A stretch of 64,000 bases of DNA from Blasia pusilla (Eukaryota). This document shows, piece after piece, positions 1 to 57,201 of the stretch. The position numbers and the translations under genes were made by a program. The stretch's first letter is position 1. The number at the start of each line of letters is the position of its first letter. The stretch lies in the NCBI GenBank assembly GCA_050084515.1, contig CM114271.1, positions 16,864,001 through 16,928,000 on the forward strand, written 5' to 3'. The notes beneath the pieces are model-generated. The model did not search any database. It worked only from the letters and a program-made list of their open reading frames with translations, and was not told where the DNA came from.

Positions 1-459
1 GGAAACCTAGACCAAACGCGAGCCAAGACTTGAGAAGAGTTGAGTCTTGGAAGGTTGGTTGCCAAAGAGGTCAGAACCAATTTTGGAACACAACTAGCGT
101 TTGGGGAATTTGGCTGTGTTTTAGACCATAACATTTAGCCCCAAGATTGGTTCAAGACAAACAAGAGCTCGTTGGAAAGCTTATCTTGAGACGTTTCCAA
201 CGCACTAAAGATCTTAGCAAACACATAAGTACAGACTAAGATATTGGCTGAAAACAACTGTGAGAGCAATCGGGTTGAGGGCCAATTGGAGAGGCCTGGG
301 TATCTTTCCATAAATCTAGGGAACCCCGGAGATCCCCATAAGTACTAGTAAGGAAGGAGTCTCACCAAGATATCTTGGAACATGAATCCCCACTTTGAGC
401 ACCAAATGGCGTCTCAGAGGCACGGGATGAAACGGGAGTTTGGCGTTGGAACTTGTCGT

Positions 460-582
460 ACGCATACACATTGCTCCACAACATACATCGCTGTCACCGA
501 GCACACACACAACCACGCATGATCCCATGCTAACTCATGGCATTCAAACAACGAGACAAGAAGTACCAAAATATTTCCAATA
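460..582 (-). repeat. LTR-end fragment, second copy of ~1108-1228
   Basis: cacacacacaaccacgcatgatcccatgctaactcatggcat...acaacgagacaagaagtaccaaaatat..ccaat occurs at both ~500-580 and ~1150-1228. Confidence 0.75.
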
Positions 583-1107
583 AAATAAGATCAAATCTCT
601 CTCTCAACACTATAGTTCTCACATGTGTGCACTCTCACATGTGTCTCTCAATATCAAACCGAACCCACTCTGCTAATGAGAGGCTTGGGTTACACACACA
701 AGACAAGCAAGACCATAACTCCGCCGCCTCATGCCAAGCGGTTCAACAAAAAAAGAATGAGCTCTTAAGCTCTCTCTCCTTGAGGTATACCCCTCCCCTC
801 TCCCAAGCTCTCTCCATGGTAACCTATGCTCCCAAGTCACCTCCTTGGCTCTTGACCTGATGTAGGAGGTCAAGGGCTAATAACCAAAAATAGAAAGTTG
901 ATCACATACTCAAAATGGTACTTACCTAAAATAGTAAGTTCCTCAATATGGCTCCAAATGAGCCGAAACGAAGGGAAAACCTACTCTCTCAAGTTTCCCG
1001 ATGCCTCGATAGGTCATCCTCAACCTACTGAGCCTGTCCTCCGCTGCTCATGAAGGCGCTTTACTAGATCCCACCGATCTATCCTAAGAGACGTGATAGT
1101 TATCGTG

Positions 1108-1240
1108 CGCATACACATCGCTATACAACATACATTGCTATCATCGAACACACACACAACCACGCATGATCCCATGCTAACTCATGGCATCCAGACAACG
1201 AGACAAGAAGTACCAAAATATCTCCAATCGCCCCCCTAGC
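1108..1240 (-). repeat. Start of 3' LTR plus polypurine tract (minus strand ctaggggggcgattgg)
   Basis: Lies just downstream of INT-PHD; the same PPT/LTR junction recurs in the second family copy at ~14535-14550. Confidence 0.7.
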
Positions 1241-1408
1241 TGGTGGTTAGGTCCCTCTAACTCCAGATAGCCATCTATCCCTACCTATCATGACATACAT
1301 CTCTCGGACGCTAAGAGCAAGAAGGCCGGGTGGTCATGTGGCCCCATTGTTAGTCGCCTTCTTATCATCCATGTCATAGACACAAGTCAGAATGTAGAAC
1401 TACCTACT

Positions 1409-1555
1409 CTATGTACATATGTGACACATCCATCGTCCTTGAGGAACCCTAGTGAGAGGTGGCGTCAAACATGCCATATGCCATCCTCACGAACACCCAT
1501 CAAAGACTAGCATAGTGGCTGCACCACGAGCGGAACCACACAACATACATCGCAA
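1409..1555 (-). pseudogene. PHD finger at integrase C-terminus
   Basis: Reading through the TGA gives CMLCGSARGAATMLVFDGCS*GWHMACLTPPLTRVPQGRWMCHIC: C4HC3 pattern (third Cys mutated to Phe) with H..CL.PPL...P.G.W.C..C. Confidence 0.88.
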
Positions 1556-2917
1556 GCCTACACAAACTATTGCTAAGCTCGGATCAACTGTACCGTCAAT
1601 GTTTGGAAGATGACATGGCGCACAGTTACGCACATGGTCCTTCCAAACCATACCATCGTGTCCCTCCAATAAGAGAACACTGGATGGCAAAACCTCATGC
1701 ACTCTCAAGATGGTGCGCCCTGCAGTCACAACCAACGTCGTGGATGCCATCTGCTGCAAGTAGATATAATATCCGTGATGAAACCTCCAGATAGTAGGTC
1801 GATAACCACCTCCACGAATAGTCGCATACCTCAACGTATCCTGATGTTGCACAATCGCCAAGTTTTCAAACGCCATGGGCATCACTCTCCAAAACAACTC
1901 AGCCCTCTCAAAATATGCTCACATCCATACATTAGGGTCATCAAGGTTCAACACCTCACCAGTATCTCGACGAATGGTCGTAGGTAAATTTGGCTCTCGG
2001 CCATAAAGCAACAAGTACGATGAGAAAGACGCCAAGGATGCCTCTATGCTGAATCTGTATCCCATCGCCAACCACAGCAACTCAAAGTCCCAATCTCCTA
2101 GGTGATCTCTCTGCAAGCCATACTTGCGTAGTCCTCTCTTCACCGTCTGCACAACCTGCTCTGCTAGTCCATCCGCCTGAGGATGATCTCGCAAAGTAGT
2201 GCGGTGATCAATCAATGCCTGATCACACAAGGCCTGAAACTCCCTGCGGAACTCTCTACCCTGGTCTGTCAACACCTCAACTGGTGCGCCGTAATGACTC
2301 AACACTCGATCTAGGAAGGCATACGCTACTCCCTCACTCGCTTTGTCAAGAAATGCATCCAACTCTATCCACTTCGAGAAGTGCTCGACCATCACCAACA
2401 CATAACGACTATGGCGCTCCGTCAAAGGCAAAGGTCCTGCAAAATCCAAACTCCATCTATAACCTAAACCCATTATCGGAAGTGGATGCAACTGTGGAGC
2501 TGGAGCATTGAATAATGCTTAGACTCGATCACATACCATGCATCTGGCAACAAACTGTTGAATGTCAGTCTGCATGCGTCGCCACCAATACTGAATCTGG
2601 AGCAAGCTATATGTGTGCTTCACTCCAAAATGACCCAACTCCTCGTGGGCATGACGCACCAAACGTGCTCTCTGCAAAGGATGAGGCACTACACGCACTC
2701 CACCATCCTCCCACACTTGCAACATATGTGTACCCTCCCAACGGAACCGTCTGGCTCGCTGTAGGATCCAATCCCGCTCTCTAGCACCCACTGTGCTTGC
2801 GACGCTACCGGTACACAGGTAAGGCAAGACCACTCCATCGTCGTGAATGTCTTGGCCACCTGTCGTCTCCTCATTGGCCTCTGGATCTAAGGACTCTCCA
2901 TCAGACCTCGCCATCAA
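1556..2917 (-). pseudogene. Gypsy integrase (HHCC zinc-binding domain, DDE core, C-terminal region)
   Basis: HAHEELGHFG...CMVC; WSLDFAGP, VLTDQGREF, HPQADGLAE. Confidence 0.93.
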
Positions 2918-3028
2918 AGTCTAGCAATGTGGCTCTCCATAGCCCAACAAGCCCAAATAGGCTTACGCATGCCATCATGAAACCAACTCCTCATCACTCT
3001 CACCATGCCAACGAGCTCCAGTCGCATC

Positions 3029-3720
3029 TCACTGACTCGAGCATGGGTTACATCTCAAACCATCTGCATCCTGGTTGAGCATCCCAGGTCTATGCACCAC
3101 CTGGAAGTCATACTCTTGCAATAAAAGAGCCCACCTTGCAAGCTTCCCTATAAGCTTGTCGGACTCTATCAACCACTTTAGTGGCTGATGATAAGTAATG
3201 ATGGTAAAGGGATTGCCGAATAGATAACATGTGAAATGTGCGACAGCCCACACTACAGCCAAGCACTCACCCTCATAAGAGCTATACTTTGCCTCTGCAG
3301 CATTGTTCGAGCGACTAGCATAAGCCACCATGAACTCTCTACAATCATTCTCATGCTGGATGAGCACGGGTCCAAGCCCCAACATGCTCCAATTGGTATG
3401 CAACTGGAAAGGACGACCCCTGATCGGTCTCCTCAATATGGGCACAGATGTCAATCTCTCCTTGAGCATCTGAAATGCTCTCTCTTGCTCATGCCCCTAG
3501 TACCACTCCTGATCCACCTTGGTCATCAAGGTTAGCGGCTTTGCAATCAAACTGTAACCCTTGACGTACCGTCGATAGAAGCTCGCCAATCCCATGAATG
3601 CACGAACTCGACTCACATCTGTAGGGCGTGGAATGCGTGAAATAGCCTCTACCTTCATTTGTTGCACACCAAGGCCCCTAGGGTATATCGTATGACCCAA
3701 GTACTCAATCCAGTCGTAAA
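3029..3720 (-). pseudogene. RT connection domain and RNase H
   Basis: VRAFMGLASFYRRYVKGYSLIAKPLT; PFQLHTNWS, VAYASR, YSSYEGECLAVVWAV, LARWALLLQEYDF. Confidence 0.93.
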
Positions 3721-4400
3721 AGAACTTGCACTTGCCTCGTTATAGCTTCAGCCCATGTAACTGCAATTATCGAAACATCTCCTCTAGATGTCGCTCATGC
3801 TCCTCAACTGTGACGCTAAAGACTACGATGTCATCAACATAACACCTAGCAAAATCCAAACCTGCCAAGATCTTATCCATGACCCTCTGAAACTCAGCCG
3901 GGGCGTTCTTTAACCCAAATGGTAAGAACCGCCACAGGTACAAACAATCCTTCCCGTGAGGATTGATGCCCCAAAATTCCATCTTCTGCCTGTCCTCTAA
4001 TCTGATAGGCAGTTGAGGGTATCCGACTCGCAAATCCAATGAACTGAAGTCCTTTGCATGCCCAATCGCATCAAAGATCTCATCAGGGGTGGGCATGGCA
4101 TACCTATCGGCCTTTGTCTGCCGATTGATAGGTTGGTAATCTCCACACATTCGCCTATCCGTCTAGTTGCCATGCACATCCTTCTTGGCGGGCATGATAG
4201 TGGCAGATGCATACTCTCCATGCGACATCTCCACTAGTCCTGCGCCAACCAAGTCCTGGCTCCTACTCTGAATCAGAGCCCTCTCCATATCACTATACCT
4301 CTAGGGTCGTCGGGAGATCGGCGTGTCACTTGACAGCTCAATGTGGATCCTTGGACCCTTAAGCATACCCAAATCATGCATACTAAATGCAAAACAACTC
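3721..4400 (-). pseudogene. Reverse transcriptase
   Basis: MCGDYQPIN, FSSLDLRVGY, LPFGLKNAPAEFQRVM, CYVDDIVVFS. Confidence 0.95.
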
Positions 4401-4794
4401 CTATAACTCCTAAGGAACTGGTGTATCCGACGCCGCTCTCCTCCTATCAGCTTAGGGTCCATATCTGGCTCCTAAGTCTCCATCGTGACTACGATAGGAC
4501 TCTCCAGCACGGATGTTAGTGGTTGTTATGCTGTAACCCCGTCTCGGACTATAGAACTCCCATCTCCACGTGCAGTACCCGAAACCACGCTCGATGGTGT
4601 GGCTATTATCTCCTGGCGTACCTGCAAAACATCCCAAAAAGGCCAAGGTTGTCTCTCCCGACCAACCCTGGTGTGTTGATCTCCTCCGGTCTCGCCCCTT
4701 GCCACTACCTCAATCGTCTCCGTAGGCATAGGGCTCACCAACGCAACAACTGTGATCTCTCGCATCCTCAAACGATGTTGCTCAGCTACTCCTA

Positions 4795-5758
4795 AGCTGA
4801 AAATCCATGTCAAGCAATTCTGGTCCATCGCCTGATCCAAGAGATGACGTCGTGATGCTACCGATAGTGACGGTATTGCCATCACTCTTGTGGGGAATCC
4901 CATCGCTCGCTCTCACACATCGGCGTTGGGCTCCTCCAACCTCTGTACCTGGTCATTCCAAACCAAGCCAGGTCCGGCCTCCTTGAATGCATAAGAAGCG
5001 GGAAAACTCACCAATGTGGGAAAGGCGGCTTGTGGCATGCCAATCCTGTTGACCACAATCAACGGCGGTCGATCATCTTGCCTCACTGCCTATGATCGAC
5101 GGCCTGGATCCAATATAGAATCCACCAACAAATCGGAGGGACACTCCACTCTCGCATAAGCCCACCGCAATACCTCATGTGGTACCAAGTTGGTCCACCA
5201 AAGACACGGGCGATGTGCTCGTGAATCCACACTCGCTGCATCTAACAACACTACCAGGCCGATCCATGCGCGCACCTGATGTGCACTCATCACCACACGG
5301 GACCTCGAATCATCCAAAATTGGCACATTCTCCAAAATGTATGCTCGAGAACGAGATTGATGCACATGTAAATGTCGCAAGATCCGCATCATCTCCCAAA
5401 ACAACCTGGACTGAGTGTTAGCTAACCCCCTACCTTGTCCAACACTCGATTGGCCCTGACACGGCCAACCAGCAATGACCAAGTCTATGGTCTCTACCCT
5501 CTCCAAGTCCTGCGCCCCCAAGAATGAAATGTCCCTCGGTAGGGAACTCTCATAACCCTGAATGGCAGACGCAGACAACAAGTCGGGAAAACAGAGGCGT
5601 AATAGCGCCACATGGTGAAGTGAAGCGCGCCTCACAACATCATCAATCTCCACATATAGGTACTGTTGTACGCGCACTCTAGCGTGCAAAAAAGCAGCTA
5701 ACCCACTGCTAATCCCTCCAAAGAGATCCAACACCCAAATACCCATCTCGAGATGCAC
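4795..5758 (-). pseudogene. DNMT3-like DNA (cytosine-5)-methyltransferase catalytic domain embedded in the retrotransposon pol region
   Basis: Motif I VLDLFGGI, II YVEID, IV DLVIAGWPCQG, VI ILENV, VIII AHRPCLWWTN. The same frame continues past two stops to IX ERAMGFP and X RRHLLDQAMD (ORFs 5090-5758 and 4526-4903 are in frame). Confidence 0.92.
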
Positions 5759-6119
5759 TACACAATTGGGGTAGTGTTCAAAGGGACCATAGAAGAAATC
5801 CTGCCTACCTGGGATTCCTCTGACCCGTCACACTCTAGTGCAAATTTCTTGCTCCACGCGATCTGCACATGCTAAGTGGCTAAGCGTGAAAGCTCCTCAC
5901 TCGAGCCCCAAAGCGGCACCTCTCCTCCACGAACTGATGCGGCTACCATGACTTTTCTCTCCATAGAAATCTCAAGAACGGGAGTATCCTCTGCATGGAC
6001 ATGTCCCTCAATCAAATCACTAGGCCAAGTGATGGCACTAGTAAATGCTGCTAAGGTCGCCATCTCTTCTGGCCATTGCTCGATCACTGCACATGTGAAT
6101 CGAACGGGAAATGAGCTAA

Positions 6120-6591
6120 GGCGCCCATCACCTAACTGTCATCTTCGTCTGTAGGACGTTGACTCCTCCCAGTAATCCAGAGAAAACCCCATCAGGTAAA
6201 ACACTACTCCACCAACCAAGACGTCGTAGGACTCTGCATGAGTCACTATCACCTTGGCTCGCACCACGGACTCATCTGTAGGATGTCCCGGGCGAATCCT
6301 TGCCACAACCTCCTGTCGGGTGATATACTATGTGGTACTCGCTACACCCAAGGATGTCTATATCCAGAATGGACAACGCTCCACATTGGCTCTCGTTAAG
6401 CCCAATCCTCGGAATGACGCTTTCCCCAACATCAGGGGTTGTGCTCCTGAATCCAACAAGACGTGTTGCGGACTAAAAGCTCTACCTCCGCGACTTATCA
6501 ACTGGAAGACCTCTTTCTGGTTATTTAGCAACACAACACCAAGAGAAACCATGGCACACTCTATTGCGGGTCTAGCGGCCATCTCCGCCAT
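6120..6591 (-). pseudogene. Retroviral-type aspartic protease
   Basis: HVLLDSGAQPLMLG catalytic D(S)G motif; a YDVLVG-like C-terminal motif near 6200-6230. Confidence 0.82.
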
Positions 6592-7109
6592 CCTAGCAGC
6601 CGCAACCTACCATGAATCTGACGTGGATGGCCTGAGCATCCGCTCCAAGGGCAGGTCCATCACATCCCCTGCAATCACCTTTGAACGTGATGCAAGAACT
6701 CCAACTCCATGCTCACATAGCGTATCGGCCAGCCAAAAAACCTTGACGGGCGTACCTCCCAACGTCATAACATCGGAAGTATAAAATAAAGGAGCACGGT
6801 ACACATCGGTGGCCGACCCCAACAACGTGCTTGACACATGCCCCTCCTGAGCATCAGCAATAGGAGTTGTCGCACTCGCTTCTCCCATCGCCCTCCATGC
6901 TTGCACACCAACAACATCACCAACTCTCCAGGAACTCTGATCAAGACCCATCGAGGGGGTCCTCATCGCCTCACACAACGTGAAAGACTGAGGAAGCCTT
7001 GTCTGTTTCCTGGCTTCCCCTTGCTATGGATCCCACTCTGAAGCAACAAGTAATAGTAGGCAGCTGCTCCTGAGGTGCCTACTATTACACTGGTGATGCA
7101 ATCACGATT

Positions 7110-8345
7110 TCTTGCATCACCAGTGCAGCAATGTGGACTCCGAGATAGGTGTGTGGCACCACGAGCTCAAGGAGGATACCGAGAGGCCGTGCCATAGAGA
7201 CCTGTGCCTTCATATGCGGCTCAGGAGCAATCGTCTTCGATTATTTGTTGGGCATGTGGTGGAGTTCATCACCAGTGCTATTGCACTCGTCAAGGTCATG
7301 GACGCGGGCCTCAGCATGGAGAAGGAGATGGTGTTGCACCAAGACTTTATCATTGTGATTATTTTTAGAGATACAATCACTCACGCGCCAGGTGTTTCAG
7401 CCTACACCCTGAGTTACGTCCGGACCGAGGGCTAGAGAGGGCACCAAAGCAAGTTGCCAGTCCGGGTGGGCCTAGTGGTCGTGCACTAGGTGGTCCCATT
7501 GGGGGACGAGGAGCTGGATTTGCCTGAGGAGGTGGTGGAGTTTCCCGTGGAGAAGATAGAGTTCCACCACCTAGATGCGTCGAGGGAGACACCCAGCGTG
7601 AGGCTGGGATGGCTACTCAGATACAACTACTATAGCAGCAGATTTCCGCTATGGCTTTGAGGTTAGCCGATGCCGGAGCCATGGCATCAACGGCTTATGG
7701 AGCTGTGAGAGATATGGAGGATATTGGATGGATGTGCGCGACTGTCTAGTTGGAGGCAATTGTTGTTGTTACACGTGGAACTGCTGTGGAGTTGGATCCA
7801 CAGGGGGGGGGAGCCAAGAAAAAAACCATGCTTCCTTAGTCTTTCACGTTGTCCGAGGCAATGAGGACCCCATCAATGGGTCCTGAGTAGAGTTCCCAGA
7901 GAGTTGATGGTGTTGGTGTGCAGGCACGGAGAATGATGGGAGAAGCGAGTGCGACGACTCCTATTGTTGATGCTTGGGAGGAGCATGTGTCAAGTACGAT
8001 GTTGGGGGCGGCCATAATGGTGTACGGTGCTTTGCTTTTTTTTGCTTCCGATGTTAGGACGTTGGGAGGTACGGGCCGCCGAGGCTTTCCGTCTGGCCAC
8101 TACGTTATGTGAGCGTGGAGATGGAGTTCTTACATCACGTTCACAGGTGATTGCATAGGAGATGATGGACATGCCCTTAGAGCCGATGCTCGGGCCGTTC
8201 ACTTGAGATTCATGACAGGTTGCGGCTACTAGGATGGTGGAGATGCCCGCTAGACCCGCGATAGAGCGTGTCATGGCTTCTCGTGGTGTTGTGTTGCTAG
8301 ATAACTGGGGAGAGGTCTTTCAGTTGGTGAGCCCAGGAGATAGAA
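7110..8345 (+). mobile_element. Opposite-orientation fragment of the same Gypsy family (gag zinc knuckle to just before protease)
   Basis: HCDYF*RYNHSRARCFSLHPEL degenerate CCHC knuckle at ~7351-7420; 7790-8345 aligns with the reverse complement of ~6480-7040. Confidence 0.8.
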
Positions 8346-11300
8346 GGATTATTATGATGAGAGAAAAATTTGGTGCTTAGTGGGGCAAGCATTGAGCTTC
8401 TATTGATTTGCTAGATAGGCCTGTATCTATTTCTGGTTAAATAGGTTGCTTATGTTAGTTTTTGTTTAATAAACTCACAAGTAACAACAAATCTCAATTC
8501 ACATATCATGCATCTATGTATTAGATCCTATTGATAAGCAAACAATGAATGACTGAATGTACATGATAACATTTTGAATATTTTAAGATGTACATACACG
8601 TATTAAGCATAATTTTGAGTTACATTTTTTTTTGAGTGAGCATTTTTATGCATTGATTGTTACAAGTAGTGATTGTATGGAGTAGGCTAGGAGGCCCATA
8701 GATAGGCATAATGATTTTATACTCATTTAAGATTCAATTCAATATGGAGTTGGTTGTTGTGGGTGTAGGGGGTAGACTAGGGGGGTGATGGATTGGAATA
8801 ATAATTTTATACTCATTCAAGGGTTCAATTACCCTACATCATAGAGTAGTTTGTTGTAACTAATAGTCGACATTGTGACCTATACCCTATTCATGACCAT
8901 ACTTGCTAGAAATAGGAGCTTCTCTTTCCAAGGGTCTTTCTATTATTGTACAATCTTTACTTGAAAAATTTTAGGGATCCAAATTTATGGATTTGGGACA
9001 TTTTGAAATTAGGAAATGGGGGAAAACTTTTTTGGAGTCTTGGAAACAAGTTTTAGGGTCCATACGCTAACAATTTGCATGTGATGTATAGGTGTACATA
9101 TAGTGACCTCCCATTCACCACCAACCCTCCATATAACCACTCACCTCATTGTCCGTTCATGCCTAATCAGCCACTAATGTTCATATAAGATCCCTTTCAA
9201 ATTATTAATTGCAGAATTTGTTGAAGTGATTTTTTCGACCATTTTCTATTTCATTTGGCGTTTACAAACAACTCTCTCCTATATTCAACCAACCATTCTT
9301 CACTTGCAATTTGTTGAGAGCAACTTCTTCTCCTCACATAGGGGCCACTCCCACTCATTTCTACATTCTTTTTCTTTCATGTGATTTTTTTTAATTCTTT
9401 TGAAATTTGGTTTTAATAATAAATGAATGCTATATCTAACTTTAGCAATAAACGTTCCACTTTAAATGCATTTAGCATTTCTAATTCGAAGTATGGGGAG
9501 TTTTTTCGTGACAACCGGAACATTTCATTCCAACCGGCTAAACAGATACGAATACAAAGGACACCCTCCTTGAACCCTCGGTTTTTGGCCGGTAAGTGAC
9601 TACCTGAATCAGAAATTCTCAAATTCTTCCGGCGAGCTCAACAAGTAACCCCGGACATTGCATGTGGGTGATACTTTCCATAAAGAAGAAGAAATTTTCA
9701 CACAAAAGACTTGAAAGTGTGATTCCACAAAGTCCACCCGGCTGCCTTTCTAGAACTTCAAAACTTTGTCTCTTCCTTGCGACGCATGTCGGTGGAGGCG
9801 CTTGTAACCATGAGAAGACAGTGTCAGATGCATTCTTGTAATGTTACGGATCACTCATTCGTCAGGAGCCGGTGTCCACTCATGGTCAGACGGGACAGCT
9901 CAATCGTCATCTATATGTTGGTCCTCAACAGTTCGACTCAACACAACACATGTGGGGCGCTACCTCCAATTTACATGTGTCATAATTCACGCCAGTGCAT
10001 AAACACGGGTGAAAATCACCCCAGAAAAAAAGTTAGGCTCAATTTACACGTGCCATCACGGGAGGATGGCATCTTCAAACCCCGTCCTCTTTTATTTTAA
10101 TCATATGGATTGTTAATCTCTACACGCTTTGCACCTACTGACGTGTAGAGCGTTCGCTGTTGGGTTGGGGGTGTGTGTGTGGGTGGGGGGGGGAATGAGT
10201 TTCCGCTCCCGACTACAGGTCCTGGCCGTTGCTGCCGGGGCTGGATTGTGGAGTTTAGGCTCCAGGATAGGAACTTACAGCATATGATTCCGGTGCAGAG
10301 CGTTCGCTGTTCGAGCGAACTCCAATCGGGTCTCGCGAGAAATCGAATCCAGTTTTCCGCGCGTGCTATCGCTTGGTGTAAGCAAATGGTATGGCGAGAA
10401 CGGGCTGAAGGGAATACTGTGTTGGAGCGACAGTCAATTCTCGGTTCCGAGTGCTTGTGACATCAACCAATCAATAATCATGACTACACCCGTCCGTCGC
10501 TCTCTCGTGAGGTAAGCTGCTATGCTACAATATTTCCCGAGCTTTTAGGTTCTTGGAAACTGGGATTTGCAAGGACGCTTTGGCTTGATGTAAAAGACGC
10601 GGATGTGGAGTGTGTCTTTGTTGACCCCGTGATCATCATGGGTGCTGTTTTCGGTTCTCTCCATACAACCTAGTCGACTCCATTCTCCGTTCATCATCTG
10701 TGCGAACAATCTTCCCCAATTTTTGTTCCCGTCTGCGAAGTGCTTTTATAAAAGTGGTTGTCAAAGCTCCTTTCATAGGGAAAAAACCACGGCGGTTCTT
10801 TCCTCCTATTCTTGAAACCTGTACAGCAGAAAACGTACAAAGAATGGATTGAAGGGAAATTTCCGTAGCCTGGAGACAAAGGTTCAAACGTATACACAAT
10901 TAGAAATCTGCAGGACGAGTGTACTGGTGACGGAATAACTGCTTTCACATAGGAGCACATAGAGTCACTGGTTCTCCAGACAGGACGTATTCCGAGCGTA
11001 TGATTGAACGATTATGTACCTAAAAGTTTGATAAAATTCCATCAATAGTCAAGTGAGTGCGATCTGCGGTCGAATGGTGTTGGAGAGTGTTTTTCTTACA
11101 TCTTTCGTGCGGAATCAGTACGAGAGGGGCAAGAAGATTGTCACAGACGTCCTAAAAGGCTTCCAACTCACTCTCTCGTGATTCTCCAAAGAATCCAGGG
11201 TCGTCGCAGTTTCAATTTGCAAGATAAGGTCCACTCAGAATCGGACATTTCGTTTGTCTGCAGCGAACAGAAGAAGCTCTTTGCATGGGGTTGAATCATA

Positions 11301-11546
11301 CATAATCTTCCAATATTTGCTGAGGAGCATCCCTGATGAGTAGAGAGAGCCAAAGTCGAAATTTTATCTGCAGAATGACATGTCATTGAACCATTCCAGG
11401 AACTGGATATCAGCGTGTTTCTTCGTAGTGCTCACCACGAGACCTTGCGTTGGAAAACTCTGAAGTTTTTCGCCTTACAAATTCGTGTGCGTAGGGCAAC
11501 TCAAATTTGGAGACAAACAAGGAAACAAGCAGTCGCAGTTCCGGTT

Positions 11547-12772
11547 ATGCAACGACAGATGTCGACGTCAACAGACTCTGAGTCTGTCGTCCAAAAGAAG
11601 TATTTTCCCATACACTTTCTTTACTTCCCGATACTCCATGAACTACGTCAGATCCTTCATTCTGTCACTGCCGTACATATGCATGACGTCGCACTTTCTT
11701 CAGCTTTTCCTCCCTGAGCGCCCATCGTGGCACAGTCCAACAAGTTCGGGATTCTCGTTATGCAACAGCGGATGTGTCGAAAGAGTCTCAATCCTGGCCA
11801 GTGATACGCCCCGAAAGGCTACGACATCATCCCTGTCTCTAAAGGATGCGTTGTCACCATTCAGCCCTGATTCTCTAGGCAGAAAACGTGGGTCTGATGT
11901 AGGTCGGAGGAAAATGTGAAAAATCTAATGGATGATGTAATGCATCTGCATCGAGCAGGCTATTGGGGAAGGTGGCAATCGTAACTGGGTCAGCTGGGGG
12001 TATCGGGGCGGCCACTGCCAAGCTATTCGCAGCTCACGGAGCACATGTCATCATTGCAGACATCCAGGACGAGCTAGGTGGAAAGACTGCCCAACAAATC
12101 GGTCCCAAAGCGCTCTACCGCCACTGTGACGTCACACGAGAAGAGGATATCTCCTCAACAGTGGACTTCGCCGTGAAGGAATTCGGCAAGTTGGATATTA
12201 TGCACAACAACGCGGGCGTGTACCCTGTTGAGGAAAATTTCTGGACCTTAGACATGAAAAATTATGACCAGGTTACGGCAGTCAACGTGAGAGGGGTTGT
12301 CATGGGAATAAAGCATGCCGCTCGAGTCATGGTGCCTGCGAAAAAAGGAGTCATTCTCAACACCGCCAGTATGGCTTCGGTTTGCACCGGCAACATTATG
12401 TCTCTCATCTACAACATCAACAAGATGAATCACCCGGGTCTGACGAAAGTGGCGGCGTTCCATTTGGGGAAGCATGGAATTCGGGTTAACTGCATCTCTC
12501 CAACTGGTATACCCACAGACATGTCAGACGCTTTGCTCCGACGGTCTGGCATTGTTGACTTAGTCGACCTTACGGATGTGTACTCGAAATCGTCGTGCCT
12601 TGAGAACAGGAGCTGCACACAAGACGACTTTGCCAAAGCTGCGCTGTTTCTGTGTAGCGATGATTCTGGATACATCTCTGGTCATAACCTGTTGCTGGAT
12701 GGTGGCCTCACTAATGTCACCTCCTACGACCCGTTCAACTTCGGAGAACCCGCCAAACTCAGAGACGTTTGA
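11547..12772 (+). CDS. Short-chain dehydrogenase/reductase, plant ABA2/secoisolariciresinol-dehydrogenase-like; exons 11547-11599 and 11959-12772
   Basis: TGSAGGIG, NNAG, catalytic Ser (NTASMAS), YNINK (YxxxK), IRVNCISP. The GT-AG intron joins AA|G to give K-LLGKVAIVTG, the usual intron position in this family. The start codon is inferred. Confidence 0.92.
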
Positions 12773-13609
12773 TCAATCCCTCCCTCCCCATCCGAATCCG
12801 CAGTTTGCGACTCGCGACATGGCTATGCCTATTTCCTGCCTGTCAAACACGTTGTTCAGACTGACAGCACAATTCTACTCCATCGCTCGGGCTAATGAAA
12901 CGATGAAAGTAATACGATCGTAATAAAAGTGGTCCGTTGATGAAGGCGGCAAGGATATGCTCCAAGAGTTATCGGGAACTAAGTAGGGACGATTGTATTT
13001 ATACGCTACTTGAAGTTTGATATTGTGCTCAGTGCGGAGTTCAACCTCATTCTGAAGTTTAGTCTTACTCATTCATGTTTGCCGTTAGGATTATTGTGAG
13101 CTTTTGAATGAGCTTTATTCATGTGCACGGTTGCTTGGAACTCTGCAAGTAACTCTAGCACTCTAGCATCTAGAGTTGCTATGCCTATTTACTAATGTGA
13201 GCTACATAGATACTAGCCCTATGCTTTGGTCTATTTTAACTACCAAGCTTGTACACTCTTAAAGTCCAAGTTTTGGTCCAACGGACCAAATTTGGTATGT
13301 GTGAACAACAATGGAAGGTTGTTTTTAAGGGTTTGGATTAGAACCAAGATAGCACCCCTCAACTAGTTTTAATTGAGATTCTGACCCCAAGTGTAGCATA
13401 CCTCATTCTACAACATACCTACTTCTACCACACATAATATATAGCCGGTGCATGGCGATCAAGATGTGTCACTTCACTTGGGAGCGATTAACCTCATTTT
13501 TTAGTAGGTGAGGCGCTTGAGGTGTGCGTTCACCGGAGGGGTAAAATTGAGTCGAAGTTTGCAATAAAAAGTTGAAATAATCTTTCTTTGATTTGTTTCA
13601 TCACTATGT

Positions 13610-13728
13610 TGTACGACTACACATTAATGCCAACATATATTGGTTGTCATACACACACATGTCTAAGATCCATCTACCTCATATGAGTCCTAACATGTCT
13701 ACGCATGAACGAGTGGACAACCCCAACA
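13610..13728 (-). repeat. LTR-end fragment, copy of ~14440-14538
   Basis: ggttgtcatacacacacatgtctaagatccatcta...ggacaacccca shared; this copy starts with canonical TG on the minus strand. Confidence 0.7.
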
Positions 13729-14329
13729 TAAAGTTGAATGTAAACTGAAAACTATGATGAAATATACAATCAACCATGCTTCATCTAAGCATCCATATCC
13801 ATGAATTATATACACACTATTGTAATACCAGGAGAAGGTGTACAAAGGACTCCCAAAATGTGTATGATCTTTGATCAATCCTACCCCACTCTTCTAGAGA
13901 GAGTCTAGACTCAATACATGCAAGTTGCACGGTATCACGGACCCAATACGGGTTTGATCTTGAGGAAGATGAGCTCCAAATGAGCTTTCTCCAAAGTCCA
14001 TCCCCTTGGGCACCTCCCTGGGTGATTTGTACACACAAGTCACTTCCTCTCTACATGTCACTAACAACATGTATTACGCGAGTACCAACTCCTTAACAAC
14101 TACACATGTGGTCTCCTCATGAGACTAACTATCAACTAACCCACAATCCTATAGGTTCAAGTGGAGCCATACATGGCTAGGAGGTTCAACCTCTCCAAGG
14201 TTGCCACTCCTCATAAAGGGAAGGGTGACCTACACTCGTAGGTCACCTCCTAAGAGCAAGTGACATATGACCTCTCAAAATTGGGAAGTACAAGACCCTT
14301 CTAAGGCCTTGATAATATCTCTTCTTACA

Positions 14330-16390
14330 CCTCATCTACCATGACAACTATCGTGCGAATACACATTGCATGGGAATATGACCGAAAGTCTAGGGAGCAA
14401 CACGCTCTTCCTTTTCGAGTGGCTTCGCCTGGCATAAGTCCTAATACATCGGTTGTCATACACACACATGTCTAAGATCCATCTATCTATTGACCCTAAC
14501 ATCTCTATGCATGAACATTTTCAATTGGACAACCCCAATCGCCCCCCTAACTGGTCGGTTACGTCCCTCTTACTCGAGATAGTCTACAAAAAAAGTCTAA
14601 ATGCTATGCAGCTTTTTGATGCTAAGATCTGGAGATCGGGTGCTATGTAACCCCATCATAAGTCACTTACCTGCAATCCATAACATCAAGAGTCATCTTG
14701 TAATCTACTTATCACACCTATCTATGTACATCTGGGACAAAGCCAACATCCAGGAGAAACCAAGTCAAGAGGCGGCGTCAAAAACGACATATGCCATCCT
14801 CGAGAATACCCATCATAGACACTATCATCGTGGTTGCTCCTCTAGCATACCCACACAAGATGTATCTCAAGCCAAGCTCAGCATTGTGGAATACACATTG
14901 CATGTTCTCAGCCCACTGAGAACACGTTTGTACCCATACGTGTGGATCGTCGAATTGAATTCCTCAACCCCATCTCGTTGAATAGATGAAGACAACTCCG
15001 GCTCTATCCTATAGAGCAAGAAATAGTAAAAATGATGCCAAGGATCCTTGTCATCCAAAGTGGTAACCCATCACCAACCACCGCAATTGTAGGTTCTAAT
15101 CTCCCAAGTGTCCTCTCTACAGTCCAAACTTGCCCAATCCTCTCTTCATCGTTTGCCAAACCATTTGGCTCCGAATGATCTCGAGAAGTTGTACAATGAT
15201 CTATCAATGCCTGATCATACAAGGCCTCAAAAGTCACCCCTAAACTCAATATCCTGGTCTATTAACACCTTTGCTAGTGCACCAAGATGACTAAGCACTC
15301 TATCAAGAAATGCATAAGCCACTCCCTCACTTGACCTATCCGGAAATGCTACCAGCTCAATCCACTTGGAGAAGTGCTCCATCATGACCAACACGTATCG
15401 ACTATCGCATCATGTCAATGGTAAAGACCCTGCAAAGTCTAAACTCCAGTGAGACCCTAATCCTATGATCGGTAAAGGATGCAAGTGTGGGGTCTGAGCA
15501 TTGAACGATGCCCGCACCCTATCACATACAATGCATCTAGCTGTAAACTACAGAACATCAGTCTATAGACCATGCCACCAATATCGAATCGGAATCAAGT
15601 TATACATTTGCTTGACTCCAAAATTTCCTAACTCCTCGTGAGCATGTCTCACAATACCTGCTTGCTACGAAGGATGCGGCACCATCCGCACTCGTCCATC
15701 CTCCCAAACTCAAAGCACATGTGTCCCCTCCTACTAGAATCTCTTGGCTTGTTGTAGGACTCAATCCCGCGCTCTAGCTAAGACACCACTGTGCAGGCAC
15801 TCCAAGACCATCTCATCGTCGTGGATGTTTTGGGTCCCTGTCGACTCCTCACTGGCATCTGACTTTGAGGACTCACCATCCAACCTCCCTCCTAGAGTGG
15901 ATACCCCTACTGACTTGACATAGTCAACATACACAAATAGGTTGATATATGCATGCTAACCCTGCACCATCTACTGATCACTTTCACCATACCATCGGGC
16001 TCTAATTGCATTGCTCTAGCTCGTACATGGGTTACGGCTCAACCCGTCCGGATCCTGGTTTAGATGTTTTGGACAATGGACAACCTGAAAATCGTACTCG
16101 CGCAACAAATGTGACCATCTGGAAAGCATCCCTATAAGCTTATTAGACTCCATCAACCATTTGAGTGGCTAATGATTAGTGATGAGCATGAAAGGGTTCC
16201 CAAAAAAATAACATCTGAAATGGGCCACCGTGTATAGTGCCGCTAAGCACTCCCCCTTGTAAGAACTATACTTCTCCTCCCCAACATTGTTCAAGAGGCT
16301 TGCATATGCCACTACGAACTCCTTCCCCTCATCCTCTCTCTGAGTGAGCACCGCTCGTAACCCCAACATACTCCAGTCCGTATGAAAAAG
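14330..16390 (-). mobile_element. Second degenerate copy of the PHD-bearing Gypsy family (RNaseH-INT-PHD-PPT-LTR), 5' truncated
   Basis: HTDWSMLGL...VAYAS...YSSYKGECLA RNase H; integrase collinear with 1900-2950; PHD remnant GWHMSFLTPPL...WLCPRC at ~14722-14870; PPT aggggggcg at ~14540-14548. Confidence 0.9.
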
Positions 16391-16638
16391 GAAACAAAAA
16401 ATGAGATGTTTCAAATGAGAGAAATCACAAGTGTAATTGAATCGAGAATCGTGGGCCCATAACCTGTGATGTAGCAGACGTGTGATAATGTGAGCAGCAC
16501 ATACTCTCCAATACGTGAATACGCACTCTTTGCAAGAACATGCATCTTTTTCAATATGTATTATTTCTCGTTAGAACAACATGACGTATCGCTCTTTTAT
16601 CCACGACAAAACAAGATAGTCCTACTAGGAGCCAAGTG

Positions 16639-16710
16639 GTTTGAATCTTCAATTTGAATACTCAACTAGTTTGAATCTTGAATTTGAATCCCCAACTGTC
16701 TGAATCTTGA
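16639..16710. repeat. Short ~30-bp tandem repeat (about 2.3 copies)
   Basis: tttgaatctt(c/g)aatttgaat..caact repeated. Confidence 0.6.
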
Positions 16711-17899
16711 GCTCTCTGCCATCATGATAGCTAAAAGCGCAATAGTAAAAGGGTGCCGGACCATCCTAACATATCTGAAATGAAAGAAGGTTCACGACCC
16801 TACATTGGTCAATATATACACTAAGGCCAAGATAGAACACAAAGAGATCGAAGAAGAAAAAGAAGAAAGGGATTTCTTCACAAATTCCTCCACACTAGCG
16901 GCACCCCAAATCTTTCCAACCTCTCAATGAGGGAAAGTTGTACCACGTAACCTCTTCCTTGACTAAGCCTCATTCACCAACCAAGGGAATCAGAACTTGA
17001 GTTTTGATAGAGTGACAAGCTCTTCTTCTTACTTTTTCCACATTAGGGCTATTAGAACTTAAGTTCTAATGCCTCGCGCAAGTGCTCCACTATTGCTCTC
17101 CCGCCCTTTCCACAAAATTGTTCCACTCCTCGTAGGAAATCTATGTTATTTTTAGGAATATTTTTGGAATATTCCTCAAATGAGCTTTGTTTCTAGTCTC
17201 GTTTTCATTGTCAAACTCAGTTTTTCATGATCATATCAATTGTGAATTCAAATCTTGCAAAATCTTGCACAATCAAACACGATTGTGCCCTCCTTACTTT
17301 CGCTTCTTACTTAATTTTACTCCTACCCAACCTTCATCGGATTTGGTCTAAAATCAAGCACACCTCACTCAAAATCAGCAACAAAGTGCCCACGCACTTG
17401 CTAACTTGCGCACACTCAATCAGGTCACAATTGACATTGGTTTCCTCACCAAAATCATCTCAGGAACTCCATCCCTACAATATGATCCTCAATTGCTCCA
17501 CTATTGAGCAACTCCATCAGGATTGAGAAGCCTTTCGATCCCCTCTTCAAATCCTATCAAATCTGCTACACTTCACAGATTTCTCAATTCTGAACATCTA
17601 ACTTTGATTACAAAAATTCTTCTACCCTATGTCCTCCCACATGGTCAGGATACACTAGCTTGCAATTCTTGCAAACCCATAGCACCTCACTTGTGTAATA
17701 ATAAAACGATACACACATTCATGAAGATGAGTCCATCTTGGCGAGTCAAAAGATATAAGGTTGGACTCAGCACGGAACGAGATTTGACCTAATAAGATCA
17801 AGTAGAGAAACTCATTTCATTGGTACAAAGGGTGAATTTTGTAAATATAACAATACCATTGGTTCTACAAATTACAATTTCCAAGACTATCTAGGACAA

Positions 17900-19973
17900 A
17901 GACGTTATGTACCCTATTAGGATAGATCTTCAATAATTCATAATCTTACAAGTACTGAATGAATGTAATTTTCTCAAGACTCGAAGGCCTATTGGAATAT
18001 AATTAGTAGGATATATGCAAGGAACAGATGGCATTGCATTCTTCTAAAGGAAATTTCTTCTACATAATGGGTTACTATCAATGTAATGTAGAGCTTGGGA
18101 TCCATAAATTATGGGGATTTGTAGATAGGCAAGCGCAGCTTGAGTGGAAGACACCAAGCAATTTAAGATGTATGTGTTGGTTGCTGCACCATTGGATCGA
18201 GATAAGATTTCAGAGCGGCATTGAGATTCTATAGGATTTGTGTCTCCCACATTCAAACAAAACATCGCGATTGCGCATCCGACAAGTTTTTTTAATTATT
18301 CATTCAATGTGAGGCTACGTGAAGTGATAGGATTAGTGTCCTTCGTCCTTTTGAATCACCAGAAATTATCTTAGTAAATGACCTAACTACAGAGGAAGTT
18401 CTGCTATTTGAAAAGATAAGACACATGTCTTATGGGATAGTCATGATTTCACGACCATCTGGCTGCGACAAGACATTCTCCATTCACTTCATGCAAAAAT
18501 ATTGGAAGAGCGTGTCACTGCCTTATTTACTCACTGCCACTACTAGCATTGTTGCTATCCGTTTGCACAATATTACAACTACTGTCCATTCAACCTTTGC
18601 CATAACCCTACGAGGCAACTTACCGTCTATGCATACATCATCCGAACAATACTATCGGCTAAAGGAAGCAAGAGTTGTAGTCATTGATAAATGCTTTATT
18701 GAAGATTGAGTTACAATCAAACTCATAAGACACCTGAACTGCCACATTTGGTACTCGCACAAAGTAGGGAAGCTTAATCTTGGTTAGTCACTTAAGCACA
18801 ATTATCCTAACTAGGGTTAGTTAATCACGGTTAGTCTAAATCGAGACCATGGTTAAGGGTAGGGTTAAGGTTGCTTGTACATACCCTATATAATTGAGAA
18901 AGGACCAACCTCCACTCAATTTCTCTCATTGCAAATTTCGTTCTCCATGGTGGTGTGTGTGTGAGAGTCGTTTTCCACCATTTATGCTTGTTTAGCAATT
19001 TTCCACATGCTTGATGCTCACCCCGCGTCTACTCCAGATAATTGCTATGAGATTGTACCAAGTACTCCCTTCAACTAACCTCAATCCCTTCTCAGATAAA
19101 CTGCTTATATTGGTAGGGGATCTTTGTCAATTACCTCCTGCATGCCGTCATAGTTGTGACACCCTTTGTTCATTATGTCCTACATCATCGTCACCATTCT
19201 ATTCTACTATGACAAAGTGCCATCTATCTATTGGAGTCAAGCATAGTTCATATCTCGTATCTTTACAGTTCCTGCATCAAGTACGCGTTGCACCACCTAC
19301 TCAGTGTGAAATCGATCGGGTCCTTTGTGATTGCTCCACAAATGAGATCGACGCCATTGATTTCTTAGATAGCAGTACTCCAATCATCTGTTCCCATTGT
19401 GTTGATGTCCATCTTTTTAACCTTATTATGCTTAAGAGGTTGTATGGTAGTGCAGAAATATTTCCCATTTACATTTCTACATATGCTCCTGCTGATGTCA
19501 ACATACAGCAGTGGCTTGGAGATGATGCCTTCCATCAGGTCCAATTTTTGGCAATTGGCTGTAGGGTATTACTTACATCCAACATCGACATTATCAACCA
19601 GGCAGTTAACGGTGCATCTACCACTATAGTTGAATCCATCTACGTTGTACAACAACCAACAACCATTATTGTTAAAATAGACTCAAACAATAAACATATT
19701 CATATCACAAGAACAAATTGTGCCACTCTACGTTATGATGCACAAAATAAATACCATAAGAGCATATTTCCTATTTTTTTAGGGTATGTCATGACCGATC
19801 AAAAAAGCCAATGTCTAACGGTTCCTACAAGGTGTCTACTTGTTCTTAAGAAAACATTTGCACCCGGCCTTGTGTACGTTATGTTTTGGAGAGTGAAAAG
19901 GAGAGAGCATCTATTACGCATTCTAGGGTGTTTGGTGCCCTTTGATTTTATTGTCTTTGGACAGGTTTCTTGA
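17900..19973 (+). pseudogene. PIF1-family helicase, probably the helicase half of a Helitron RepHel, degenerate and split by an insertion
   Basis: Eroded Walker A (RPSGCDKTF), TATTSIVA, TVHSTFAI, VVVIDKC(LML), GDLCQLPP, VLLTSNID...VNG, FPIFLGYVMTDQKSQCLT, FAPGLVYV..RVK. Confidence 0.88.
18697..19007. mobile_element. 311-bp solo LTR inserted in the helicase
   Basis: Perfect 5-bp TSD tgctt (18692-18696, 19008-19012); TA(TG)...CA termini; internal ccctatataa TATA-like box; removing it restores the frame. Confidence 0.85.
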
Positions 19974-20559
19974 TTTAGTCATTTATGTTATCTAAATACT
20001 CGTACCTCAAGTGTTTTTAGTATGGCTACAAGCGACGATTCTATTAGGGGTCATGGTAGGAGGTCTACAACACCAACTACGCCACTTCTTCTCATCAACA
20101 AGACTTCATCTACAATTCGAGCTACATGTGTCACCGTAATTGTGTTGAGTGACATCGGTTCTCCTTAGCATGAGCACCACACGGCAACTCCAACTGCTTG
20201 GATGTACAGCAATGACCACGAGACTGCCTCTGAAAATCAGTTTTGTAGTATTTAATTCACTTCCTCAACCAAACTATAATCTCTGTTGGGATATTCTGAC
20301 AACAATATAAACAAGTACCCAAGTCGTACGTCAACTTTGCAAAAATGATATTGAATGACATGCCAGACATTCATGCCAAGACTGCAACCCAGTTAGTGCC
20401 ACCGACAGATGCACAACTGAAGTACGCAAACAGTTTAGGCCTGAATCACAAAAATTGGGGGGGAAATATCACCAGCTGCCAAAAGAGCCGTTTAATTGAT
20501 CAGAGGGCCACTACATTTAGAGAATTGAAGAAGCAACCATCGGCGATAGGTGCTACATC

Positions 20560-55000: not shown

Positions 55001-57201
55001 GGTGATCTCCCCATATATATAGTGTTGATGTCAATTCTTTCTTACTCACCATGTAAGAAAGAATGGTCAAGATCAATCTCCCTTATTTGCTAGCCGATTT
55101 ACCAATGCCTCAACTATTCACATGTATGCTAGGGTCACGTCGACGATAGAGGTGATCTCTCCATGGTGTATATCTCCGGGGTTTGTATATTCCGTATCAT
55201 TCACACACGAACTTTGAGATCTCCTTAAAGAGTTATGTTTAAACACAAAGAAGATTAAGGTAAGAGAATAATTTTCACTCTAATGTAAGCGAGTAGTTAT
55301 TATTCATGACATACCATGACTAGGCAGCTAAATCCCAAACTGCTGCAGCAGCAGCAGCAAGGCCTAGCTGATTAACGAACTAATTAGCGGGAATCCCAAA
55401 GAGAAAAAATCGGCTGCCGTCGAAAACAAAGTAGGGCGCTTTAATAATTCGGGGGCCCCTGGACGTGGTCGTGAGCAGCTATTCCACGATAGCATGGGCC
55501 GCACCTCTTCATCATGGACAGTACGAGAGTCCGGCGGACTACAGCTTCCCCGGCGAGTCGTCCGCGAGCATGGTTTTCGGGGCGTTCAACGCTCTGGGCA
55601 CCGTGGCTTTCGCGTACGCGGGGCATAACGTGGTGCTGGAGATCCAGGCCAACATTCCCTCCACGCCGGAGAAACCGTCGAAGATTGCTATGTGGCGAGG
55701 CGTCGTCATGGCGTACATAATCGTCGCGGTGTGCTACTTCCCGGTGGCAATCGTGGGGTATTGGGCATTCGGCAACGCAGTGAAAGACAACATTCTGCTG
55801 AGTTTGGGGAAACCCAGATGGCTCATTGCGATGGCCAACATCATGGTGGTGGTTCATGTCACTGGCAGCTTCCAGGTTCGCCCCATTCGCTTTCCCTTCC
55901 GTGCAGATCCTCAGCTTCACGTTTCATGGGCGTTCTAGCCAGCCAGCCAGCTAGCTAACTAGCATTCTGAATTGTGGCTTCATCTACTCAGTCGCCACAA
56001 AATCTTATCGTCCGTGTTGAGAGCTCGAATTCGCATTCGCTTACTACCTTGAGTAGTAAGTCTGGTCGAGGCTCGTGAGCGTCTGATGCAATGGGGGAGT
56101 TCGGAACGGTGGCTGCTGCAGGTTTACGCGATGCCGGTGTTCGACATATTCGAAGGTTGTCTGGTGAAAGGACTAGGACTCCCTCCTTCTACGCTCCTGC
56201 GCATCGGTGTTCGCAGCTCCTACGTTGGTAATCACGCTTCGCTTTTCACTCAGTTGAGATGTTTGTGCAATGGTTGGTACGAGTGTGGATGGATTCATCA
56301 ACTCGGGTCCACGAGCTTTGTAGCTTTCTTCTGCACAGCGCCTCGAGTTTTCTCAACTTTTTGATCGAATCTTGACCAATCGAAGTCTGGCTTCTTCTGA
56401 GCTCCAATCTATACTACCAGTCAGGGAAAACAGATAAAATCTGTACAGCGTAGTACAGAGCTAGCGGCGTAAAAAACATCTCGTTCGATGCACACAGCTC
56501 AAAGCTAACGTTTATTTCGTTCTCTCAACAGTAATGACGGCGTTCGTTGCGTGTTCTCTACCGTTTTTCGGATCTCTGCTTGGATTTCTGGGCGGAATAG
56601 CGCTGGCTCCCATGACTTACTTTGTAAGCCCAACCCCTGGCTTGACGATCCACTAGCTTCCGTTCTAATCGATAGCAGGATCACCAGCTCTTGTTTTGGC
56701 GATCAGTACGTGAGAGTGGTCTCCCATCGAACAGCATACGGTTTCGTCTACTTTCTCTCCGTGTGAAACAAAAGTGGATATGTATGCAGTTCCCGCACTC
56801 GCTCAATCTGAGAGACTTGTGGAGCACTCGAGCTTTATGACTTGTTTCGAAATAAACTTAGAAATGTGTACAGACTGACGCTCTCACATTCGTCTCGCTC
56901 TGGAACTCGTGCGTGTGCAGCTACCGTGCATGATGTGGCTGAAGACGAAGAAACCCAAGCCCGGGAGTAAGTCTTGGCTCATCAATTGGGTACGTAGACT
57001 CCGTAGCCGCTCCGCAAGCTTCCGAGAGTGACTATACACATATTTCTGTGGGTCGAACTCACCTCAGACTTGACCGCCGTCTCCGTGTGCGTGCAGTTCC
57101 TCATAGTCGTGGGAGTGCTGCTCATGCTCACGTCCTCCGTCGGGGGACTCCGTGGGATCGTCATCAACGCTTCCAATTATAAGATCAAGTCCTACCATTG
57201 A
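52026..57201 (+). CDS. LHT: Lysine/histidine transporter (LHT, AAAP family). Exons 52026-52085, 53583-53776, 54420-54836, 55479-55875, 56122-56227, 56532-56623, 56921-56989, 57097-57201
   Basis: [84 protein letters not shown] junctions keep the frame to a TGA. Exon 1 is less certain. Confidence 0.95.

Follow-up and report, generated by a model that had tools for sequence, protein, structure and literature searches.

Retrotransposons that carry either a DNA methyltransferase or a histone-reader domain have been described in several lineages. In Klebsormidium nitens, the element KnitGypsy-Dnmt3 holds a DNMT3-type DNA methyltransferase (DNMT) in its Gypsy coding region, described as being under purifying selection (de Mendoza et al. 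2018, PMC5890265). In Chlamydomonas, Gypsy elements such as REM1 (Perez-Alegre 2005) and Gypsy-7a_cRei (Craig et al. 2022) carry a PHD finger as an accessory domain, for which passages of PMC9940879 and PMC8557442 propose an influence on insertion sites. Fusions of PHD fingers and chromodomains with transposons have been surveyed (10.1101/2021.11.30.470311) and, according to a preprint (bioRxiv 10.64898/2026.05.21.726589), the long terminal repeat (LTR) retrotransposons termed EpiLTRs and DAM-LTRs combine DNA methyltransferases with a chromatin reader as 'epigenetic toolkits'. Here, we analyse a stretch of 64,000 nucleotides from Blasia pusilla (contig CM114271.1, positions 16,864,001 to 16,928,000; the window), whose minus strand contains a Ty3/gypsy element in which a DNMT3-like domain and a PHD finger that ends the integrase are found together.

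The Blasia element is like KnitGypsy-Dnmt3 in having an unrearranged, intronless domain of the DNMT3 type within a Gypsy coding region, and two integrase-PHD gene models of the host of that element, K. nitens (P0167 and P0199; relatives are designated by P numbers throughout), belong to the same clade as the window's element, with a support of 99 in the tree described below. Its 3′ repeats, arranged as B-A-B, also recall the 'DIRS-like repeat structure' that the legend to Fig. 4 of PMC5890265 gives for KnitGypsy-Dnmt3. No K. nitens protein was found among the 35 matches to the DNMT region, and the words 'PHD' and 'chromodomain' do not occur in the main text of PMC5890265, figures and supplements aside. 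The two cases differ in their reach, since the main text of PMC5890265 confines the capture to the K. nitens lineage, while liverworts, Sphagnum and chlorophytes are among the sources of the relatives found here.

Judged by their published description, REM1 and Gypsy-7a_cRei share with the element a Gypsy Gag-Pol with an accessory PHD finger; a methyltransferase is not mentioned in the passages of PMC9940879 on Gypsy-7a_cRei, unlike the DNMT-bearing family of the window. The named chlorophyte relatives, which form a sister clade, differ from the window's element in that they have the DNMT between RNase H and integrase and, past the PHD finger, a tail of about 320 amino acids. As in chromoviruses such as MAGGY and Tf1, a domain of the histone-reader type is placed at the C-terminal end of the integrase; however, the predicted reader of the Blasia element is a PHD zinc finger, whereas targeting by the chromodomain has been demonstrated (Gao et al. 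2008, cited in PMC6673714). The EpiLTRs and DAM-LTRs of Euglena and other protists are described in the preprint as joining an adenine methyltransferase, a DNMT4-related DNMT and a chromodomain, compared with the DNMT3-like domain and PHD finger found here. Finally, cellular DNMT3A and DNMT3B likewise unite a DNMT3-type catalytic domain and a zinc-finger reader of the H3 tail (predicted in our case) in one genetic unit, but in the Blasia element ADD and PWWP are absent and the canonical PHD finger lies about 1,100 residues off, past reverse transcriptase, RNase H and integrase, and maybe in another open reading frame (ORF). A search of the literature, figures and supplements aside, found no published text that pairs a PHD finger with a DNMT in a Gypsy element. 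The parts are already in print, a DNMT3 in one Gypsy element and a PHD finger in algal ones; their regular pairing across a group of elements is hardly described.

Layout and decay of the Blasia element

On the minus strand, from 5827 to 1412, a single frame of 1472 codons without frameshifts encodes a DNMT, a reverse transcriptase (RT), an RNase H (RH), an integrase (IN) and a PHD finger, in this order. The features of the element and of the related sequences nearby are as follows.

6361-7023, minus strand: aspartic protease (PR, DSGA motif) and C-terminal part of gag, seen as ORFs in a frame that differs from that of the DNMT
4529-5827, minus strand: DNMT3-like cytosine-5 methyltransferase domain (Pfam PF00145, DNA_methylase, E 2.4e-11, on 5093-5827)
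4526-4528, minus strand: in-frame TAA at codon 434, which may be a native ORF boundary, to judge from the gene calls of relatives
3500-4162, minus strand: RT in the same frame (RVT_1, Pfam PF00078, E 1.1e-17, on 3770-4162)
3032-3496, minus strand: RNase H (RT_RNaseH, Pfam PF17917, E 6.2e-32)
2522-2920, minus strand: N-terminal H2C2 zinc-binding domain of the integrase (Integrase_H2C2, Pfam PF17921, E 3.1e-16)
1922-2518, minus strand: integrase catalytic core (rve, Pfam PF00665, E 5.7e-12)
1550-1918, minus strand: integrase C-terminal domain in the same frame, predicted as a helical part and a small beta-barrel from the model of the relative P0206 (strands 100-150, ahead of the PHD finger)
1415-1549, minus strand: PHD finger of the C4HC3 type (Pfam PF00628, E 1.1e-7, 32.2 bits against a cut-off of 24)
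1409-1411, minus strand: stop codon closing the integrase-PHD frame, 2 codons past the last Cys pair
453-1228, minus strand: 3′ non-coding repeats in B-A-B layout, from repeat search and read depth
7789-8344, plus strand: inverted partial copy of the gag/PR region, 82% identical in nucleotides to 6481-7038 and head-to-head with the element
14725-16393, minus strand: second, diverged and truncated relic of a related family, with RNase H, integrase and a PHD remnant

The order PR-RT-RNase H-IN, with an H2C2 zinc domain and a DDE integrase, is that of Ty3/gypsy elements (Metaviridae). The PF00628 match corresponds to residues 124-168 of the piece translated from 1412-1918 and ends 2 codons ahead of the stop. 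Pfam matched no chromodomain (PF00385) in the pieces of the window or in P0010, P0012, P0029 and P0038, so that the PHD finger occupies the place that the chromodomain has in chromoviruses. An earlier note on this DNA, made from its letters alone, had proposed precisely this position for the finger, as well as the presence of a reader and a writer domain in one retroelement, and both proposals are borne out by the Pfam matches to DNMT and PHD in the same minus-strand frame. Membership of the chromoviruses was considered for the element and rejected, a chromodomain not being found and a PHD finger standing there instead.

Pfam gave no match for the gag/PR pieces of the window (6361-7023), and the PR of the relatives was found by phmmer with the PR of P0012 as query. 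Beyond the 3′ end of the frame, a unit of 129 nucleotides at 1100-1228 recurs at 453-581 with 91% identity, 518 nucleotides apart. This 3′ region varies among copies, as reads contain a 72-nucleotide length variant (joint from 1228 to 654) and, consistently, alternative sequences at 654, 707, 1228 and 1264. A pair of terminal repeats was not found, in that the 3′ flank (1-1500) matches nothing upstream of gag with a repeat finder or with blastn at word size 7, and the copy is 5′-truncated.

The copy present in the window is dead. Its frame (5827 to 1412) is broken by 16 in-frame stops, two of them in the DNMT, which has also suffered an Arg-to-Cys change in motif VIII and a Gly-to-Asp change in motif X, both at sites that are near-invariant in relatives. 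The PHD finger keeps seven of its eight zinc ligands, the third Cys being replaced by Phe, and its fourth Cys is cut off from the His by an in-frame TGA (1487-1489). A pair of 1-base indels private to this copy is found at 2922 and 2943, just upstream of the H2C2 domain. The gag is 5′-truncated beyond about 7040-7340, and the read depth of the family falls past the bin 6671-7337. Because most reads of the family are only 88-95% alike to it, the copy is old. Some DNA reads join 6495 and 8329 on opposite strands, and the inverted gag/PR arrangement may itself be repeated. The relic at 14725-16393 is 45-73% identical in amino acids to the main element, depending on the domain, and closes in the same finger, of which a remnant with Cys-to-Tyr changes and a frameshift is left.

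The family in the genome and among its relatives

Raw DNA and RNA reads under the same species label were mapped to positions 1-20000 of the window at 88% likeness, using about 1% of one DNA run. DNA depth was 1100-1500x in the RT-IN bins and about 2700x in the 3′ repeat, the maximum of the element, with an average of about 0.9x in six flanking bins; this suggests a family of around 10^3 copy-equivalents at 88% likeness or more, a rough figure given how thin the flanking baseline is. Depth in the DNMT bins (4670-6003) was about 530-600x, roughly 45% of that in gag/PR and RT-IN, and RNA depth falls further there. Either many copies are without the DNMT segment or carry a diverged one, or the segment decays faster than the rest.

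The family is also transcribed. First mates of RNA read pairs over the element lie on the plus strand by about 10:1 or more, while those around the host intron at 10509-11493 (GT..AG), which belongs to a plus-strand gene, lie on the minus strand, and the RNA of the family is therefore sense. At the PHD stop site (place 1489), a sense codon is present in 1634 of 1657 DNA reads and in all 353 RNA reads.

Relatives were collected by three protein searches, with the translated frame of the window, X standing at stops, as query. The search for near-length integrase-PHD proteins gave 240 matches, the best 120 of which underlie the counts given for relatives, and that among shorter proteins gave 1191. 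Integrase-PHD identity was highest with P0155 (77%), followed through Calypogeia fissa (73%), Marchantia polymorpha (68-76%), Sphagnum fallax (60%) and Klebsormidium nitens (45-52%) to Chromochloris (44%). The top matches to the DNMT part were Marchantia gene models with 53-59% identity, and the closest named relatives are liverwort gene models, which points to a bryophyte as host, most probably a liverwort. When a 219-residue Marchantia query comprising the integrase C-terminal domain and the PHD finger was used in an exhaustive search, 309 clusters (50% identity) were retrieved at E<=1e-30.

The PHD finger is a constant trait of these proteins. A strict C4HC3 pattern is kept at the same place in 116 of the best 120 integrase relatives, and the precomputed Pfam column lists PF00628 in 118 of them, so that the finger is not due to chance; a chance match had been considered as a candidate explanation and was rejected. 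The earlier note had named the loss of zinc ligands, or a finger out of frame in young copies, as what would speak against its proposal, and neither the reads at the stop site nor the relatives display it. A DNMT is flagged in 18 of the 120 by precomputed Pfam and in 72 by family-specific phmmer, and 69 of these 72 have an intact PHD finger, a wide co-occurrence of the kind that the note had named as a check. As for its placement, the DNMT lies between RNase H and integrase in 66 of the 72 (directly before the integrase in shorter proteins) and before RT, like in the window, in the other 6.

These placements follow the phylogeny. In a FastTree of 174 rows, built from the integrase core to the PHD finger, with SH-like support only and a midpoint root, two groups are separated with a support of 99: a streptophyte-type group of 64 rows and a chlorophyte-type group of 110 rows. 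The former contains the window, the Klebsormidium and Calypogeia rows and all 6 rows with the DNMT before RT, and none with the other DNMT placement; the latter contains all 68 rows with the DNMT between RNase H and integrase, and includes Haematococcus, Pleodorina, Tetrabaena and Chromochloris. Between the two placements, the DNMT domains share 37-39% identity over about 300 residues (E 1e-56 to 2e-71), and their likeness to solved DNMT3A is far weaker (E 3e-7); this fits a long co-inheritance.

The DNMT domain of the window has motifs I, IV, VI, VIII, IX and X in normal order, unrearranged, and all of its 29 sequence matches in the PDB are to DNMT3A, 3B or 3C, at E 3e-7 or weaker. When 106 DNMT-bearing relatives were aligned with it, the Cys of motif IV was found in 90 rows, and motif VI kept its E in 97 rows and its N in 95; the glycines of motif I, the Arg pair of motif VIII and motifs IX and X are conserved as well. 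By this alignment, the predicted catalytic residues of the Gypsy-DNMT3 group are retained by the family and not by the copy in the window.

Conservation of the PHD finger extends to both clades, being intact in 53 of 63 rows in that of the window and in 107 of 110 in the sister clade, and its commonest ligand spacing is C-x2-C-x11-C-x2-C-x4-H-x2-C-x14-C-x2-C. It is terminal in the window's clade (median of 8 residues beyond the last Cys), whereas in the chlorophyte-type clade a conserved tail follows it (median of 317 residues). For the tail of P0029 (residues 1759-2113), no sequence match was found in the PDB, and Pfam gave Methyltransf_11 below threshold (E 0.16, 13.1 bits against a cut-off of 21.2); this tail may be a third, unrecognised domain.

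The nearest solved PHD fingers by sequence (E 2e-15 to 1e-7) are those of CHD4, PHF12, DPF2, PHF21A/BHC80, Lid and KDM5A/B (PHD1), ATXR5, KAT6A, DPF3, UHRF1, BAZ2A/B and AIRE, which we take to be readers of the unmodified H3 tail, of the H3K4me0 type. Neither BPTF, ING and TAF3 nor any other K4me3 cage reader is among the 60 solved PHD matches listed. In the AlphaFold model of the Marchantia relative P0206, moderate as a whole (mean pLDDT, the per-residue confidence, 68.2; pTM 0.36), the finger has a pLDDT of 80-88 and superposes on that of DPF2 at 0.6 A over 45 columns and on that of BHC80 at 1.0 A over 48 columns. The top Foldseek matches to the whole model are the Tudor-plus-PHD cassettes of PHF1, MTF2 and UHRF1, with a root-mean-square deviation (rmsd) of 12-15 A that limits the likeness to the level of single domains; as modelled, the integrase C-terminal barrel and the PHD finger may resemble a two-module histone reader, high as the rmsd is. 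The loop ahead of the PHD beta-strand differs between clades, being basic in that of the window (mean of 1.0 acidic versus 1.9 basic residues) and acidic in the sister clade (2.5 versus 0.8).

How DNMT and PHD finger are distributed over the translation products can be approached from the 34 proteins that were reached solely by the DNMT search. Twenty-four of them are PR-DNMT proteins without RT, and the C-termini of the PR-DNMT proteins, as well as the first Met of the RT-RH-IN-PHD proteins, map to window codons at about 431-450. The in-frame TAA of the window at codon 434 coincides with this end of gag-PR-DNMT and start of RT-RH-IN-PHD in relatives, and may be a same-frame readthrough boundary that leaves PR and DNMT on the gag side. 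P0004 and P0142, for each of which the longest contig has 8955 bases, may likewise be two ORFs of one element. In the predicted proteins, an ORF boundary thus appears often to separate DNMT from IN-PHD, and cleavage by the protease would part the two anyway.

A proposed reader and writer in one life cycle, and the alternatives

We regard it as near certain that the element is a dead, 5′-truncated copy of a high-copy, transcribed Ty3/gypsy family belonging to the DNMT3-bearing Gypsy group, of which KnitGypsy-Dnmt3 was the first to be described, and that the layout of this family is gag-PR-DNMT3-like, followed by RT-RNase H-integrase-PHD. From this layout we infer the following working. By binding the N-terminal tail of histone H3, the terminal PHD finger would anchor the complex of integrase and cDNA on nucleosomes that share a given chromatin state, in the manner of the chromodomain of chromoviruses. 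Placed with gag and PR before the apparent ORF boundary, the DNMT3-like domain would probably be part of a separate and more abundant product, which may methylate the cDNA of the element or its fresh insertion. Reader and writer would share one life cycle rather than form one reader-guided enzyme. The explanation as a whole, that is, a dead member of a DNMT3-bearing Gypsy family whose separate reader and writer serve one life cycle, has in our estimation an even chance of being right. More tentatively, a DNMT3-like writer and a PHD reader of the H3 tail may have been carried jointly by one Gypsy lineage throughout the green lineage, as an ancient and selected set in which the PHD finger would place copies in H3K4-unmethylated chromatin and the DNMT would mark them at once. 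If true, such a transposon-borne pair of reader and writer would mirror the logic by which ADD and methyltransferase domains are joined in cellular DNMT3.

Several observations weigh against this explanation. The copy number is calculated from a flanking depth below 1x in about 1% of one run, and the ORF boundary is based on automatic gene calls. In P0012 (2358 amino acids) and P0010, DNMT and IN-PHD are fused in one ORF, so a single polyprotein does exist in some members. The residue before the catalytic Cys is Glu in 40 of the aligned DNMTs (e.g., P0012 and P0084) versus the canonical Pro in 45, although the Cys itself hardly varies. The basic loop makes reading of the K4me0 type less secure in the window's clade. 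Lastly, the isolated DNMT domain of KnitGypsy-Dnmt3 produced no methylation in yeast, a result that its authors call inconclusive, as human DNMT3B failed too (PMC5890265).

Some of these observations lend themselves to other explanations. The fused ORFs of P0012 and P0010 would suit a true coupled reader-writer, in which an uncleaved or complexed Pol uses the PHD finger to bring the DNMT to H3K4-unmethylated nucleosomes, like ADD in DNMT3A, so that one mark sets both the integration site and de novo methylation. The co-occurrence of both domains in 69 of the best 120 relatives and in both clades of the tree, the likeness of the DNMTs of the two architectures over about 300 amino acids, with the long co-inheritance that it fits, and the K4me0 mark, which the nearest solved PHD fingers presumably read, as does the ADD domain of DNMT3, all agree with such coupling. 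However, with the protease encoded upstream of the DNMT, and with RT, RNase H and IN placed between DNMT and PHD finger, normal Pol processing would split the two; the ORF of the DNMT ends ahead of RT in many relatives; and the position of the DNMT shifts between clades while the PHD finger stays at the end of IN, which argues for independent modules. We find a coupled enzyme quite improbable. It was the idea of the earlier note, according to which the polyprotein may couple integration directed by histone marks with de novo DNA methylation, as a self-contained epigenetic module. That both domains co-occur in one element stands, but a single polypeptide in which a reader guides a writer is made doubtful by the gag-PR-DNMT ORF that, in many relatives, ends before that of RT-RH-IN-PHD.

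The two remaining alternatives concern what each domain does. The DNMT-like domain might not be a DNA methyltransferase in vivo, being instead a pseudo-enzyme, a structural domain or one that acts on RNA; to this the yeast result and the Glu-Cys in place of Pro-Cys in 40 aligned domains would correspond, and RNA methylation is raised for DNMTs borne by long interspersed elements (LINEs) in the discussion of PMC5890265. Nevertheless, 106 relatives with identities of 37-56% keep the glycines of motif I, the catalytic Cys, the Glu of ENV, the Arg pair of motif VIII and motifs IX and X, which one would not expect of a dead fold, and a Ka/Ks below 0.2 is given for KnitGypsy-Dnmt3 in PMC5890265; we judge this alternative unlikely. 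It is also conceivable that the PHD finger binds a partner other than a histone, for example a host factor, the Gag encoded by the element or a factor of nuclear import. PHD fingers are versatile, no aromatic-cage pattern was identified in that of the family, and the window's clade is without the acidic loop that the sister clade has in common with what we take to be K4me0 readers. On the other side, chromatin proteins make up nearly all of the 60 listed solved sequence neighbours and of the best structural matches to the PHD finger alone, many of them solved with H3 peptides (e.g., 5i3l, 5vab, 3t6r and 4lk9), and the finger has the position of the chromodomain, where targeting is demonstrated (Gao et al. 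2008, cited in PMC6673714), leaving a non-histone partner with only a slim chance. The preferred explanation remains that of separate products, a predicted histone reader on the integrase and a predicted DNA methyltransferase on the gag side.

Surroundings of the element and wider meaning

Next to the element, an expressed host gene is found on the plus strand at 10509-12769, with an RNA-supported intron at 10509-11493 and a short-chain dehydrogenase exon at 11936-12769 (adh_short_C2, E 1e-55); the relic at 14725-16393 lies only about 1.4 kb downstream of it. Two other stretches of the window are repeated: 18677-19343, with a DNA depth of about 290x, and 9339-10005, with a depth of about 35x near 9500, RNA on both strands and an insertion variant of roughly 39 nucleotides at 9524-9526. 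Further along are an ORF with DUF659 at 41676-42269 (E 8e-36), presumably a domain of hAT-type transposase-derived proteins, and an amino-acid transporter (Aa_trans) in two exons at 54271-55935.

What does the element add to the systems described so far? The DNMT3-bearing Gypsy group extends beyond Klebsormidium to bryophytes and, with its domains rearranged, to chlorophytes and many environmental contigs. A conserved PHD finger closes the integrase in nearly all members of the group, and one liverwort-like genome appears to hold on the order of a thousand copies of such a family, with sense transcripts. Chromatin tools borne by retrotransposons show how parasites handle host silencing. In this respect, Marchantia, with its mature genetics, its epigenome maps and its close relatives of the Blasia element, is where the role of a transposon DNMT and integration steered by a PHD finger would be testable.

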